Shown piece after piece: positions 42,413 to 46,427 of a stretch of DNA of 57,661 bases (position 1 is its first letter; every line of letters starts with the position of its first letter). The translations under genes and the position numbers were made by a program. The stretch comes from Candidatus Amesbacteria bacterium (lineage in GTDB: Bacteria; Patescibacteriota; Microgenomatia; CAZETR01; Amesbacteraceae): assembly GCA_963736875.1 (NCBI GenBank), contig CAVTQH010000004.1, positions 253,899 through 311,559 on the forward strand, read 5' to 3'. The notes under the pieces were generated by a model that did no database searches, was not told the origin of the DNA, and saw only the letters and a program-made list of their open reading frames with translations.

Positions 42413-43498
42413 ATGAAATTGGTTTTTGTCCTGTTTCTGTTACTATTACTATCCCCGATTACAATTTTTGCCGGTCCCAAAAGCACCAACTTCGAGCTTC
42501 AGGAATACCAATTCGGTGCAGGCGGAACCAACACCGGTTTCAGCTCAACCAACTATTCCATTTTTGGAATTTCCGGTCAGGCCGAATCTGGTCAACCCGG
42601 ATCAACCAATTTTCAATCCGGAAACGGCCTGGTTTATTTGCTGCAGTCCGGAGTTCCGCCCGCCCCGACCTTGTCAAATAACAGTAATTTATACTATAAC
42701 AAACTATTAATAACTATAAACTATAGTATATCTTATGCATCGATTCCGTCGGATATGTTATTTGCTATCGCCGTCTCCACTGATTTTGGAAATCCCCTGC
42801 TTACCAAGTATGTCCAGGCAGATCAGACCCTGGGAGACAACCCTGTTTGGCAATCGTATACCACCTGGGGTGGTTCTTCCGGATTTATCCTCGCCGGCCT
42901 ATTGCCCGATACCACTTATTATGTAAAAGTTGCTGCCAAACAGGGAAGCTTTACCCAAACCGGATTCGGCCCGGCTGCCGGTCTGGCTACGGCTCCCAGT
43001 TCCATTTCTTTTTCTGTCCGCACCGTCGCCCAGTCCTCCCCCCCCTTCACCATGGATCTGGGAATTCTCACCCCCGGATCGGTTACCACTACCGTCGATC
43101 AGGGTCAAATTACGATTTCCACCAACGCCAACTCGGGAGCGCTGGTTTATATCTATGGTACCAATTCCGGACTTCTCAGTTCTTCCCAAGGTAATTATAC
43201 AATCGACAGTGTCTTACCATCCGGCCAGGATCTGTCGCTTCTGACTGAAGGTTATGGAGTCAGGGGTACCGGTGTCTCCAAAGTTTCCGGTAACATGGTG
43301 ATCAGTGAACCCTATAATGGTTCCGATGATTTTGTCGGACCCGTTGATACCGATCAGCGGATTCTCTTTACCACCGACGATGCCCCTGTTGACACGGGAG
43401 TCGGCCGGTTCGAAATCCGGGCAAAAGCTTCGCTTGTCGCCCCTCCCGCCGGCGACTACGCCGATACTCTGACCATTATTGCCGCCGGCTCATTTTAA
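42413..43498 (+). CDS. Secreted FN3-like + WxL/pilin-like protein
   Basis: Signal peptide, GLLPDTTYYVKVAA (FN3-like), C-terminal APPAGDYADTLTIIAAGSF. Confidence 0.72.
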   Translation: MKLVFVLFLLLLLSPITIFAGPKSTNFELQEYQFGAGGTNTGFSSTNYSIFGISGQAESGQPGSTNFQSGNGLVYLLQSGVPPAPTLSNNSNLYYNKLLITINYSISYASIPSDMLFAIAVSTDFGNPLLTKYVQADQTLGDNPVWQSYTTWGGSSGFILAGLLPDTTYYVKVAAKQGSFTQTGFGPAAGLATAPSSISFSVRTVAQSSPPFTMDLGILTPGSVTTTVDQGQITISTNANSGALVYIYGTNSGLLSSSQGNYTIDSVLPSGQDLSLLTEGYGVRGTGVSKVSGNMVISEPYNGSDDFVGPVDTDQRILFTTDDAPVDTGVGRFEIRAKASLVAPPAGDYADTLTIIAAGSF

Positions 43499-43543
43499 AA
43501 AGTACTTGACAACTTATAGCTTTTGTTAGCATACTGGAAGATA

Positions 43544-44572
43544 GTGAAAAGGCCGACCTACTTCAAATTTCTCTCCTTACTGCTGATTTCTTCTTTGGTT
43601 ATCTTTACCGGATCTTCCCTGCTGGCTCCCCGGGTAAAAGCCGACGAAGCCACTTTCGGTCTGGTCCGTTTAAACCGCATGAAAGCCCAGGCAGTAGCGA
43701 CTGGTGGTACCGTTTGTCTCAAGCCTTCTGCCAGTGACACCACGGTTACCACCATATCTGTTTCTTTCGCGGGTGGGGGTACTGGTTTTACTTTAGGGGC
43801 TGATGCTTTATTTGCTGCCACAGTCACCGATATGCCGGTATTTGGTGGTACTACCGCCACCGCTTTCCCGGGAATAAATGGCATTACTCCGGTAGTTGCC
43901 AGCCAAACAATCACCTATACCGTCGCCTCAACCAGCCTGACTGCAGCAACGGTTTATTGTTTCAACTTTGGTGCCGGTCTGACTCCCAGCGGTAGCCCGG
44001 CCAGTAATTTGACCGGCAACATCACCACCAACGGTACTCCGGGAGAAGTGGCTGTTTATGCAATAGCTACCATTTCTGAAGATCAAATCGGTGTGACAGC
44101 CACCGTCCCGCAAATTTTTAACTTCTCCCTTCCGGATACTACCGTTTCCTTGGGCAATCTTTCCACCAGCTCTGTTACCTCCGACAGTGTCACTGCCACC
44201 ATAGGCACCAACGCTAAAAATGGCTGGGTCTCCTGGATAAGAAATTCTACCAATGGTTTGTACTCAACCAGCCAATCCAGTGGGATTTCCGGGGGTGCAT
44301 ACCCCACAGTTAGAGATTTGACCCCTGATACGGGTTATGTACTTGATGTAGTTCCCGGCACCGGAACCCCCAGTATCGATGCCGCTTATGACGGCAACGG
44401 GACTACTTCCGGAGGTATTATGGAAAGCACCTTCCACCAAATAGCCTATAAAGCAACCCCCGGTGCAGCCGATGACTATACCCTGAACTTCCGGGCTAAG
44501 GTATCTGCCATTCAAGCCCCTTCCGCTGACTATGCTGATACAGTCACTATTGCCGCTGCCGGAGAATTCTAA
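43544..44572 (+). CDS. Secreted WxL/pilin-like protein
   Basis: Signal peptide, VTATVPQIFNFSL, TNAKNGW, C-terminal APSADYADTVTIAAAGEF. Confidence 0.72.
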   Translation: MKRPTYFKFLSLLLISSLVIFTGSSLLAPRVKADEATFGLVRLNRMKAQAVATGGTVCLKPSASDTTVTTISVSFAGGGTGFTLGADALFAATVTDMPVFGGTTATAFPGINGITPVVASQTITYTVASTSLTAATVYCFNFGAGLTPSGSPASNLTGNITTNGTPGEVAVYAIATISEDQIGVTATVPQIFNFSLPDTTVSLGNLSTSSVTSDSVTATIGTNAKNGWVSWIRNSTNGLYSTSQSSGISGGAYPTVRDLTPDTGYVLDVVPGTGTPSIDAAYDGNGTTSGGIMESTFHQIAYKATPGAADDYTLNFRAKVSAIQAPSADYADTVTIAAAGEF

Positions 44573-44575
44573 ACT

Positions 44576-45559
44576 GTGAAAAAGCTCATACTAGGAATCG
44601 CTCCTGCCCTCTTCTTACTTCTGGTTCTGTCACCTCTGCCTGTATTAGCAGCTGAGTTGGATTTGACAGTTTCACCGGTATCTCTGGATTACAGCCCACG
44701 ACCGGGCGACGTGATTCGCGAAAAAATTACAGTTCACAATAACTCTTCAGATCCCCTGATCCTCAATCTCTCGGTGGTAAAAATGACTGTTGATGACCGG
44801 GGAAATGTGATTCCCCAGGAGTTTGCCCTAACCGACCCAGCTGCCGACTGGATTAAATTCAGCTCTTCTAAAATTACTGCTCCGGTCAAAGAATGGTACG
44901 ATGTTCCCTTTACCATCACGATTCCCCAGGACGCTGCCTATGGTAATTATTTCGCTCTGGTCTTTTCCCCGCCCTCAGACCAACCCGGCACCGGGGTCAC
45001 TTTGGTCCGGGGAAATGTCCTGGTCCCCATCCTCCTCAATGTCCAAAAAGAAGGCGCAGTTCGGGAAGCGATGATTACCGAATTCAAAGTCAAAAACTTT
45101 GTTACCCAGTATTTACCTGTGGATTTCTCAGTCACTGTTAAAAATACCGGCAATCTGCACGTCCCACCCCGCGGTAATATTTTTATCCGGGGTTTGGGCC
45201 AAAAAGATCTGGCTGTCTTGGAAGTAAATCCCGGCCTGGGTAATATTTTGCCTGATTCCTCCCGTACTTTTACTGCCGCTTGGACCGATGGATTCATCAT
45301 CCGCGGTACTGACAATCGCCTGACTTTCAACTGGAACAAGCTGACCGATTTCCGACTGGGCAAATACACCGCTTATGTCCTGCTGGCTTATGATAACGGG
45401 GTTAAAGACGTGCCTATTGAATCCACCATTACCTTCTGGGTCTTCCCCTACACAGCGGTAATTGTCATACTGATAATTGTCATTCTGGCTATTATCCTTA
45501 TCACTTATGGTTTTAAAGCCCTGGTTAAAAAAGAAGCAAAAAAACTTAAGCCCCAGTAA
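44576..45559 (+). CDS. DUF916/DUF3324-like (chaperone-fold) protein with C-terminal TM anchor
   Basis: LTVSPVSLD..PGD..ITVHNNS, DWIKF, PFTITIPQDAAYGNYFALVF, VKNTGNLHV.PRG, TM followed by a basic tail. Confidence 0.75.
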   Translation: MKKLILGIAPALFLLLVLSPLPVLAAELDLTVSPVSLDYSPRPGDVIREKITVHNNSSDPLILNLSVVKMTVDDRGNVIPQEFALTDPAADWIKFSSSKITAPVKEWYDVPFTITIPQDAAYGNYFALVFSPPSDQPGTGVTLVRGNVLVPILLNVQKEGAVREAMITEFKVKNFVTQYLPVDFSVTVKNTGNLHVPPRGNIFIRGLGQKDLAVLEVNPGLGNILPDSSRTFTAAWTDGFIIRGTDNRLTFNWNKLTDFRLGKYTAYVLLAYDNGVKDVPIESTITFWVFPYTAVIVILIIVILAIILITYGFKALVKKEAKKLKPQ

Positions 45560-46427
45560 CCTGTTAGCCGTAACCGGTATCACTGTCTCCCCTGCTGTTA
45601 CCCGCCTGGATCTGTCTTCCGATCCCGGGTCCTTTAAGCTTTCTTATACCAATTTCACCGATCACCCGGTGCAGCTCACTTTCAGTGCCAAAGACTTTAC
45701 CAGTCTGGAAGAAGGATGGCGAATCAGATTTTTAGACGAAAATGATTCCGTTAACTACCGTTACTCTCTGTCATCCTGGCTGGAGTTTTCTCCTTCCAGT
45801 CTATTATTAAAACCCGGACAGTCGTTACCGCTTAACATAAATATCCGCCAGGCTTCCCTGTCCGGCGGCGGTCACTATGCTTCCGTTATCGCAGACATCA
45901 CCTCTGCCCCTCCCGTCCCGGAGGCTATTGCCATCAAAAGCCAGTTGGCCAGTCTGGTATTTGTCCGCGCCCATACCGGTTTTGAACACGACGAGGCCCG
46001 GATTTCCAGTTTTTCCGCCGGTTCCGCCGATTACTTCTCTCTTCCCCAAAAATACATATTACGCTTTGATAACTTTGGTAATACCGATTTAACCCCCCAT
46101 GGTCTGGTGATTGTCAGGGACGCTTTTAACCGTGAAGTATCCAGGGGAATATTAAATACCGACTCTCTGATAGTCCTACCCGAATCCATCCGCCGCTTTG
46201 ATATTCCGGTTACCGTCAAATCCGCCCGCTGGTTACTCCCCGGTCCTTACCAGGCTTCCCTGACCGTTAATTACGGATCCAATCAGTCCATGTCCTCGCA
46301 TCTTCAATTTTTCAGCCCGGGTAGCAGTATCAATCTGGTTCTGATTATCCTCCTGCCGGTTCTGCTTCTGGTCCTGTTCCTTCTGTGGTCAAAGAAAATG
46401 AAACGTCGGCAGCATTTTCGCCCATAG
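45477..46427 (+). CDS. Second DUF916-like protein with C-terminal TM anchor (start uncertain)
   Basis: ITVSPAV, SWLEFSPSSLLLKPG, GGHYASV, FDNFGNTDLTPHG, TM followed by a basic tail; paralogous layout to the previous gene. Confidence 0.72.
   Translation: MSFWLLSLSLMVLKPWLKKKQKNLSPSNLLAVTGITVSPAVTRLDLSSDPGSFKLSYTNFTDHPVQLTFSAKDFTSLEEGWRIRFLDENDSVNYRYSLSSWLEFSPSSLLLKPGQSLPLNINIRQASLSGGGHYASVIADITSAPPVPEAIAIKSQLASLVFVRAHTGFEHDEARISSFSAGSADYFSLPQKYILRFDNFGNTDLTPHGLVIVRDAFNREVSRGILNTDSLIVLPESIRRFDIPVTVKSARWLLPGPYQASLTVNYGSNQSMSSHLQFFSPGSSINLVLIILLPVLLLVLFLLWSKKMKRRQHFRP

Follow-up and report, generated by a model that had tools for sequence, protein, structure and literature searches.

Bacteria of the Candidate Phyla Radiation (CPR), which may account for much of the diversity of bacteria, spend their lives attached to host cells, and the molecules that make this contact are barely known. 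The question considered here is what is encoded by four adjacent genes, named A to D, in the genome of a Candidatus Amesbacteria bacterium (contig CAVTQH010000004.1 of assembly GCA_963736875.1), where they occupy positions 42413-46427 of an analysed stretch of 57,661 nucleotides (nt), referred to below as the window. A preliminary description, made from the letters of the window, had taken them for a module of two WxL- or pilin-like secreted proteins and two DUF916-like membrane anchors, which might build a pilus requiring neither an usher nor a sortase. According to the present analysis, the four genes most probably represent a divergent operon of the Pam type, i.e., they would encode a CPR pilus that is built by donor-strand exchange and needs neither an usher nor a sortase. 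The system is of a kind that has already been described, namely a divergent and simplified variant of the Pam pilus modelled in NCBIfam.

Gene A (42413-43498, +) codes for a secreted subunit of 361 amino acids (aa), gene B (43523-44572, +) for a PamB-type two-domain pilin of 349 aa, gene C (44576-45559, +) for a membrane-anchored chaperone of 327 aa that resembles PamC and PamD as well as the DUF916/WxLIP proteins, and gene D (45477-46427, +) for another chaperone, a divergent paralogue of C that carries a transmembrane (TM) helix at its C-terminus. All four reading frames are intact and lie tightly packed on the plus strand, exactly where the preliminary description had placed the module, with a gap of 24 nt between A and B, a gap of 3 nt between B and C and an overlap of 53 nt between C and D. 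Translation of D from the first TTG (45477) yields 316 aa and from the ATG at 45507 yields 306 aa; the ATG, which is conserved in relatives, is the likelier start. Promoter and terminator scans returned nothing above chance level.

The Pam pilus was described for Candidatus Mycosynbacter amalyticus and other CPR bacteria (Troman et al., 2026, bioRxiv 10.64898/2026.03.03.709456; PMC13278184). Its components are the pilins PamA, PamB and PamE, the tip protein PamT, the chaperones PamC and PamD and the anchor PamR, and cryo-electron microscopy (cryo-EM) revealed donor-strand filaments in which the subunits are joined through a donated linker strand (PMC13278184). PamC and PamD are FimC/PapD-like proteins with a C-terminal TM helix and are proposed to act as chaperones, PamR is an RbmA-like anchor, and the system has no trans-envelope machine (PMC13278184). 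In NCBIfam, the family is represented by the models NF058578 for PamR (cut-off 300 bits), NF058579 for PamT (equivalog, 240 bits) and NF058581 for the C-terminal domain of the pilins (CPR_Pam_pilin_C, 55 bits). A canonical pam operon was found in the complete CPR genome G218 (locus L015). Its PamR (356 bits) and PamT (295 bits) both exceed the cut-off, and the locus further encodes pilins of the PamA and PamB types, a TM-anchored chaperone of 330 aa, a small fibre on the divergent strand and ATP synthase genes.

For B, the connection to this family extends over the entire protein. When a profile of the B family, built from 13 sequences of the related loci described below, was compared by hhalign with a profile of six PamB-type pilins scoring above the NF058581 cut-off, the two aligned end to end over 318 columns with a probability of 97.4 and an E-value (E) of 1.1e-11. 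B consists of a signal peptide, an N-terminal beta-rich domain, the stretch DDQIxVTAxVPxxFTFxL (residues 186-203) and a C-terminal acceptor domain, and NF058581 aligns with it over model positions 4-148 of 148 at 10.9 bits. Conservation in the B family is highest in the stretch DDQIxVTAxVPxxFTFxL, just ahead of the C-terminal domain, and in the terminal DYxDTLTVVAAGxF, with I189, A193, V195, F199, L203, D336, Y337, D339 and T342 as invariant residues. In the Pam pilins, conservation is reported to peak in the linker that is donated and in the site that binds it (PMC13278184), and residues 186-203 of B are a candidate for the donor or linker strand.

The layout of A is more complex. The signal peptide (1-21) is followed by three S-T-N-(Y/F) repeats (22-76), which constitute a PamT-like module and are unstructured in the model, an FN3 domain (~80-195), the conserved strand SISFSVR (198-204, consensus PxLTFxI) and a Pam-like C-terminal domain (213-361). 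The AlphaFold2 model, with a predicted local distance difference test score (pLDDT) of 85, contains the FN3 domain, the strand and the C-terminal beta domain. The PamT model NF058579 matches A in the N-terminal module only (residues 4-72, model positions 7-76, E 5.6e-7), and it is matched by 40 of the 61 members of the A-family profile with a best E of 1e-12; the repeat module of A is the same module that opens PamT. In the remaining part, the A-family profile aligns with the PamB-type pilins over the linker and the C-terminal domain (hhalign probability 63, E 6.8e-5, 161 columns), and NF058581 spans A over model positions 5-148 of 148 at 15.8-18 bits. Family profiles were needed to see these relationships, as the single sequences of A and B gave insignificant matches to canonical PamT and PamB, save for the N-terminus of A. 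A Foldseek search with the whole model of A was dominated by FN3 matches and had the CFA/I tip adhesin in seventh place, which is little informative on the C-terminal domain.

The preliminary description had pointed to a terminal motif shared by the two subunits. The C-terminus of A reads DYADTLTIIAAGSF and that of B reads DYADTVTIAAAGEF (C-terminal ends APPAGDYADTLTIIAAGSF and APSADYADTVTIAAAGEF, respectively); A fits the motif exactly and B fits it once a gap of one residue is allowed. The similarity between A and B reaches beyond this strand and covers the last ~130 residues (BLASTP 34% identity, E 3e-10), and in both families conservation is strongest in the terminal strand ...DYxDTLT(I/V)xAxGxF. 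That A and B are pilin-like is borne out through the PamT module, the NF058581 alignment and the hhalign matches to PamB-type pilins. The more specific labels WxL and SCPU did not stand: the WxL model (PF13731) has no match in A or B at E<=1 and none in the 61 A-family members at E<=0.1, the SCPU model (PF05229) has none in A, B or the 61 members, and a W-x-L motif is missing from both proteins. Likewise, the DUF3324 model gave no matches against A, B and the 61 relatives.

C and D were assigned by the same approach. C comprises a signal peptide, two beta-sandwich domains, a TM helix (292-324) and a K-rich tail, and its AlphaFold2 model (pLDDT 92.8) shows the two sandwiches and the helix. D is a paralogue of C (BLASTP 23% identity over 228 residues, E 2e-8), which is also detected by the profile of the C family (64 aligned members) with an E of 2.8e-22. 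Both proteins have two immunoglobulin (Ig)-like domains and a C-terminal membrane helix, seen as a strongly hydrophobic segment of 19 residues followed by K/R, and in both the mature part opens with (L/I)TVSP. When the C-family profile was compared by hhalign with a profile of 11 chaperones that adjoin above-cut-off Pam pilins, the two aligned with a probability of 100 and an E of 7.7e-66 over 288 columns, in which the TM helix is included. The D-family profile matches the same chaperones with an E of 3.6e-45, and on these grounds C and D are identified as a pair of paralogous Pam-type chaperones. The C-terminal TM anchors named in the preliminary description are thus present as membrane helices, and the role of the proteins is better read as that of chaperones than as that of mere anchors. 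A first Pfam scan found nothing significant for A to D, with a faint match of C to PF06030 (WxLIP_PGBD, E 0.12), and PapD_N (PF00345) has no match in C, D or the 64 C-family members. An assignment of D as a PamR analogue was rejected, since the D family has no hhalign match to PamR.

In a six-frame search of the whole 998-kb genome, NF058581 matches A and B only, and the matches of the chaperone profile are C and D only. The A-D locus is therefore the sole one of its kind in the organism. A CPR cell is not expected to possess an outer membrane, and no outer-membrane usher (PF00577) was found in the genome by a search that was positive in the E. coli control. LPxTG sorting signals are absent from A, B, C, D and the 1170-aa secreted fibre protein encoded next to them, and the three sortase genes of the genome all lie on other contigs. 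With no usher in the genome and no LPxTG signal at the locus, the proposal of an usher-less, sortase-less pilus with DUF916-like membrane proteins has largely held.

Whether the four genes belong together was assessed from their recurrence in other CPR genomes. A set of 12 related loci from 12 genomes and 8 families was compiled, and an A-, a B- and a D-type gene together with one or two C-type genes are present in all 12. The association of the four genes is far beyond chance, because all four types occur together in 12 of 12 loci, and the module of the preliminary description is thus co-conserved; the lack of co-conservation that would have counted against it is not observed. On a broader scale, the chaperone profile has matches in 203 genomes out of 401 sampled from the CPR, representing 166 of 320 genera, and NF058581 in 117 of the 401 at a relaxed threshold, 33 of them above the cut-off. 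A chaperone is present in 111 of the 117 genomes with a pilin domain (Fisher p 7e-34, not corrected for phylogeny), and in at least 38 genomes, paired by hand among the matches listed, no more than ~150 nt separate the end of a pilin gene from the start of a chaperone gene.

Several observations weigh against the assignment to the Pam type. The bit scores of A and B given above do not reach the 55-bit cut-off of NF058581, and A reaches 29.2 bits with NF058579, for which 240 bits are required. The best whole-genome match to the PamR model NF058578 has 14.9 bits, lies elsewhere in the genome and carries an internal stop codon, no PamE-like third pilin was recognised, and a separate single-domain PamT gene was not found in the genome search. 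Moreover, the D protein in the clade of the window has no ordinary signal peptide, and both reference works, on the Pam pilus and on the Elr pilus discussed below, are preprints.

The N-terminus of D deserves a closer look in this respect. A, B and C have ordinary Sec-type, clearly hydrophobic N-termini, and the D-type proteins of more distant loci have ordinary Sec signal peptides. D itself shows a K-rich stretch and then only NLLAVTG before the mature GITVSP, which begins 17 nt beyond the stop codon of C; the frame upstream of it traverses the region coding for the TM helix and tail of C. The lost export signal, together with the absence of PamR and the weak curated-model scores of pilins far removed from the family models, could be taken to mean that in this lineage the locus is in decay or has kept only part of its function, and that no pilus is made. 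An assembly error behind the missing signal was rejected, because the same layout of the C-D junction, including an ATG equivalent to that at 45507, occurs in four independent metagenome contigs (ENA, Logan, JGI; L044-L047). The chaperones of these close relatives are 71-74% identical, and the conservation of so unusual a junction in four assemblies favours selection over decay. In addition, the four frames are intact and the four-gene set without PamR recurs in the 12 genomes of 8 families, which makes decay highly improbable and leaves a divergent Pam-type operon as the preferred reading.

A second pilus system bears on this operon through its chaperones. Sleutel et al. (2026) showed that the elr WxL cluster of Enterococcus faecalis builds a pilus by donor-strand exchange, with the WxL pilins ElrD and ElrC, the DUF916/DUF3324 chaperone ElrE and the LPxTG terminator ElrB (bioRxiv 10.64898/2026.10.17.759780). 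ElrE was shown to be a membrane-anchored donor-strand chaperone, and the WxL pilus was detected in Bacillota only, in a screen that used one RefSeq proteome per genus, Pfam gathering thresholds and a WxL gene within 10 kb (bioRxiv 10.64898/2026.10.17.759780). Chaperones are defined in that preprint by the Pfam gathering scores of PF06030 (DUF916) and PF11797 (DUF3324). A text search found no mention of CPR or Pam in the Elr preprint and none of WxL or DUF916 in the Pam preprint, and either preprint presents its system as exclusive to a single lineage, Bacillota in the former and CPR in the latter.

In our dataset, PF06030 is matched by 38 of the 64 C-family members (best E 1.3e-8) and by 10 of the 11 canonical Pam chaperones (best E 2.7e-7), and about a third of the 117 clusters of C homologues carry a precomputed PF06030 annotation. 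The gathering cut-off of this model, 27.3 bits, is not reached by C (12.9 bits), D has no match, and PF11797 was found in none of the 64 C-family members. The C-family profile detects the solved WxLIP of Enterococcus faecium (EfmWxLIP1; PDB 9i25_C, 9i1y_A) with an E of 9.4e-6; the small profile of canonical Pam chaperones gave nothing significant against PDB sequences. For a direct comparison, profiles were built from five Bacillota WxL clusters taken from plasmid records, the first profile covering their DUF916/DUF3324 proteins and the second their small WxL proteins. The DUF916/DUF3324 profile aligned with the C family over 220 columns (hhalign probability 98.3, E 2e-14), with the canonical Pam chaperones over 242 columns (probability 98.5, E 2e-15) and with the D family at an E of 8.8e-13, and these alignments span both domains. 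The negative controls were insignificant (WxLIP against pilin B, E 0.18; chaperone against pilin A, E 0.03). At the level of the fold, the best Foldseek match of the C model in the PDB is 9i25_C, described as "WxLIP bound to long WxL" (E. faecium, E 1.8e-9), followed by the chaperone-usher chaperones CsuC, CfaA, YadV and EcpB (target-normalised TM-scores 0.52-0.59); RbmA is also present among the matches. From the hhalign matches over both domains, the insignificant controls and the PF06030 matches, it follows at the level of sequence profiles that the chaperones of the Pam and WxL/Elr systems are remote homologues.

The DUF916-like character of C and D, as suggested in the preliminary description, is accordingly a matter of homology, supported by the PF06030 matches, the WxLIP profile match, the hhalign comparisons and the best structural match. 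Among the family models that had been named with it, DUF916 was thus recovered in the chaperone family, and WxL and SCPU on A and B as well as DUF3324 were not. For the subunits, the pilin profiles (A family, B family and PamB-type) align with the small WxL proteins only in the last 12-14 residues, at an E of 0.07-0.47, where A.DYxDTLTiiA in the former stands opposite A..YkTTLTWiL in the latter. Because the alignment is confined to these residues, homology of the pilins to WxL proteins is not claimed. The parallel to the csc (WxL/DUF916) clusters of Firmicutes that had been drawn therefore applies to the chaperones, and for the subunits it concerns the terminal strand only. The Csc clusters, described in Lactobacillus plantarum (Siezen et al., 2006; PMC1534035), belong to the same gene families as the WxL/DUF916 clusters; they were once read as surface complexes for carbohydrate utilisation, and work from 2026 re-reads such clusters as pili.

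The older view of these clusters leads to another explanation of the A-D locus, in which C and D are anchors that statically hold A and B at the surface for the binding or breakdown of polymers, in a complex of the Csc/WxL type that does not polymerise into filaments. The name of PF06030, WxLIP_PGBD, still reflects the reading of DUF916 as a peptidoglycan-binding domain, passages of the earlier literature present DUF916/DUF3324 proteins as linkers of WxL proteins to host surfaces (PMC10599100, PMC1534035), and A carries an FN3 domain, which is typical of surface binders. However, filaments have been seen by cryo-EM in both the Pam and the WxL/Elr systems, and the DUF916 protein is the chaperone in the latter. 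Furthermore, B is homologous over its whole length to a pilin that forms filaments, and the strand ahead of its C-terminal domain is among its best conserved parts, as is reported for the donated linker of Pam pilins. A static complex is therefore very unlikely, and a filament built from Pam-type subunits is preferred.

The relationship of the chaperones raises the further question of a common origin. We tentatively propose, as a reading that is quite possible though short of likely, that the Pam and WxL/Elr pili are two branches of one ancient usher-less pathway for cells without an outer membrane. Both branches would use a membrane-anchored two-domain chaperone, with DUF916/DUF3324 as the equivalent of PamC/PamD, and subunits that accept a strand and whose acceptor domains would be homologous; the WxL strand YxTTLTWxL would then be the counterpart of DYxDTLT(I/V)xA. 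The form found in the window, with two subunits and two chaperones but neither PamR nor an LPxTG terminator, would be near the minimal core. Of this reading, the profile comparisons show the homology of the chaperones; homology of the pilins and a shared descent of the whole pathway are proposed here with corresponding reserve. Features shared with Elr are the membrane-anchored two-domain chaperone, which is remotely homologous to C and D, the order of small subunit and then chaperone, the lack of an usher and the C-terminal strand pattern Y-x-(T/D)-T-L-T-(W/I/V)-x-(L/A). In contrast to Elr, A and B have no WxL motif or PF13731 match and their profiles meet those of WxL proteins in the last strand only, PF11797 is not detected in the C family, and the locus has neither an LPxTG terminator nor sortase coupling. 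The donated strand is reported to be an internal linker in Pam pili and is N-terminal in WxL pilins, and the Elr system is reported as confined to Bacillota, whereas the window derives from a CPR bacterium.

How such a pilus would be assembled can be outlined by analogy, as strand complementation and exchange, the order of the subunits and their function are carried over from the cryo-EM work on M. amalyticus Pam and E. faecalis Elr. A and B would be exported by the Sec pathway, and their incomplete C-terminal Ig-like domain would be held at the outer face of the membrane by C and D, which would lend a strand to it. The strand PxLTFx(I/L), located ahead of the C-terminal domain of the next subunit, would displace the chaperone strand, and a linear, non-covalent fibre would result. 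Candidates for the donor strand are this linker strand and the N-terminal STNY repeats. The strong conservation of the strand ahead of the C-terminal domain and of the terminal strand would lend indirect support to such an exchange. B, being of the PamB type, would form the shaft, and A, with its PamT-like module and the extra FN3 domain, would be a distal or specialised subunit. Because PamR is absent, the fibre would remain attached at its base via a chaperone or another terminator. Its likely role would be reach and adhesion to the host cell.

The proposed mechanism shares with the chaperone-usher pili (Csu, CFA/I, Pap/Fim) the principle of donor-strand complementation and exchange, as far as the analogy holds, and the L-shaped two-domain fold of the chaperone. 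Unlike these, the system has no usher, and the likeness of the chaperones is one of fold without a PapD_N sequence match. C and D are tethered by a TM helix and not soluble, and the pilins of the window have an extra N-terminal domain.

The genes surrounding the module were considered as possible further components. Divergently from A-D, as the preliminary description had stated for a giant fibre, a secreted fibre protein of 1170 aa is encoded (38076-41588, -), and 8 of the 12 related loci have a homologue of it adjacent to the module. The genes that co-localise with pam operons likewise include one for a "tail fibre-like protein", which is central in the neighbourhood network of the Pam preprint, as well as those of the ATP synthase (PMC13278184). 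It may accordingly be asked whether the pilus mainly serves the fibre as a stalk or dock; the fibre would then be a tip adhesin or a partner that donates a strand, and the A/B filament would do no more than display it. The recurrent adjacency and the place of the tail fibre-like protein in that network are in line with this, and giant open reading frames (ORFs) of 2,000-6,452 aa in other CPR genomes end in a Pam pilin domain, for which the large WxL tip adhesins set a precedent. On the other hand, the fibre of the window contains no Pam_pilin_C domain, A and B being the only matches in the genome; it has its own signal peptide, and adjacency alone is no proof of physical coupling. It was also considered as a relative of the small 317-aa fibre of the canonical locus, which was rejected as the two show no similarity. 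Such a stalk is therefore unlikely, and besides the preferred Pam-type operon the 1170-aa fibre is best described as a frequent neighbour whose status as a pilus subunit lacks support.

The gene string on the plus strand that contains A-D is headed by a gene for a helix-turn-helix (HTH) DNA-binding protein of the HTH_17/excisionase type (41689-41976, +; PF12728, E 8.5e-12; TIGR01764, E 4.5e-10). It is followed by a gene for a 141-aa protein with a possibly degenerate PIN-like fold (41986-42411, +), the stop codon of which lies 1 nt before A. The sole PDB match of this protein is the putative VapC AF_1683, collinear over residues 10-126 at an E of 0.17, and no Pfam PIN model matches it at E<=1. 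At the position of the first catalytic Asp it has a Thr (VFLTPS), and the catalytic acids look lost. From the HTH-PIN pair of the preliminary description, the HTH part was thus recovered and the PIN label was not. Among the 12 related loci, the two genes occur upstream of A only in L016 and L017, which are from the same class. The preliminary description further supposed that the pair might control the module and that the module might display the fibres, both of which would have to be read as suggestions; for the display of the fibres, no support was found.

Downstream, X198 (46389-46985, -) encodes a protein of 198 aa with an N-terminal TM helix and without a match in Pfam, NCBIfam or the PDB. 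In 5 of the 12 related loci (L016, L017, L019, L020, L027), phmmer found a homologue of X198 within the module or next to it, often between the C-type and D-type genes. X198 is a possible component that has escaped recognition, such as a base or a terminator. A small secreted protein of 136 aa, encoded just past the module (47016-47426), has no family match and no homologue in the 12 related loci and is probably unrelated to the pilus.

With its surroundings included, the locus can be compared with Pam operons as a whole. Common to both are the CPR host, a B protein that is homologous end to end, a pilin gene followed directly by a chaperone gene, two TM-anchored two-domain chaperones of the same family, a nearby fibre gene and the lack of an usher. 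Unlike the Pam operons, the A-D locus stays under every NCBIfam cut-off, the genome lacks PamR as well as a separate PamT or PamE, and in A a PamT-like N-terminal module and a full C-terminal domain of a pilin are joined through an FN3 domain. The HTH and PIN-like pair at the head of the gene string, the conserved extra membrane protein X198 and the atypical N-terminus of D are further differences, and the flanking ATP synthase genes of the canonical operon were not seen in the scanned part of the window, the annotation covering part of it.

Some observations on the family in other genomes are added here. In G197, a CPR genome of 0.8 Mb, a Pam pilin domain scoring above the cut-off forms the end of each of at least nine ORFs (~865-1,081 aa) on several contigs, which is a large paralogous expansion. 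In other CPR genomes, the domain closes giant ORFs of 2,100-6,452 aa (G020:C9:273709-274149, G175:C1:60162-60548, G139:C38:86236-86664, G048:C61:3015-3464 and G041:C2:354300-354527), whose products would be giant adhesins with an acceptor domain. G218 has two separate pilin-chaperone loci, the canonical operon L015 (G218:C1:503000-522000) and a second one at G218:C1:768542-771147, and L015 includes a tandem, near-identical duplicate of a 450-aa PamA-type gene (8950-10308 and 10468-11817). Protein A has a single genome-contig match, L050 (CAZRBN010000014.1, 22,430 bases), with 44% identity, from a metagenome-assembled genome labelled as uncultured Gammaproteobacteria bacterium. This contig is probably a CPR contig that was binned with another organism, perhaps a host. 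The C-family chaperone P0198 is also located on a contig of 22,430 bases.

For the CPR bacteria, these results mean that the Pam pilus also occurs in a form that is simpler and far more divergent than what the curated models cover. The conserved core consists of two types of subunits and two types of chaperones; the system can do without PamR, and fusion of the PamT module to a complete pilin is possible. In terms of annotation, the "hypothetical proteins" A to D can now be named. Of wider interest is the homology between the Pam and WxL chaperones, which is found in neither preprint and, judged from the profile comparisons, connects the CPR system with the WxL/DUF916 clusters that enterococci, listeriae and lactobacilli carry. 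This link provides a testable hypothesis on the origin of chaperone-assisted pilus assembly in bacteria with a single membrane, and through it the knowledge gained from the tractable Bacilli could guide work on the uncultured CPR bacteria.

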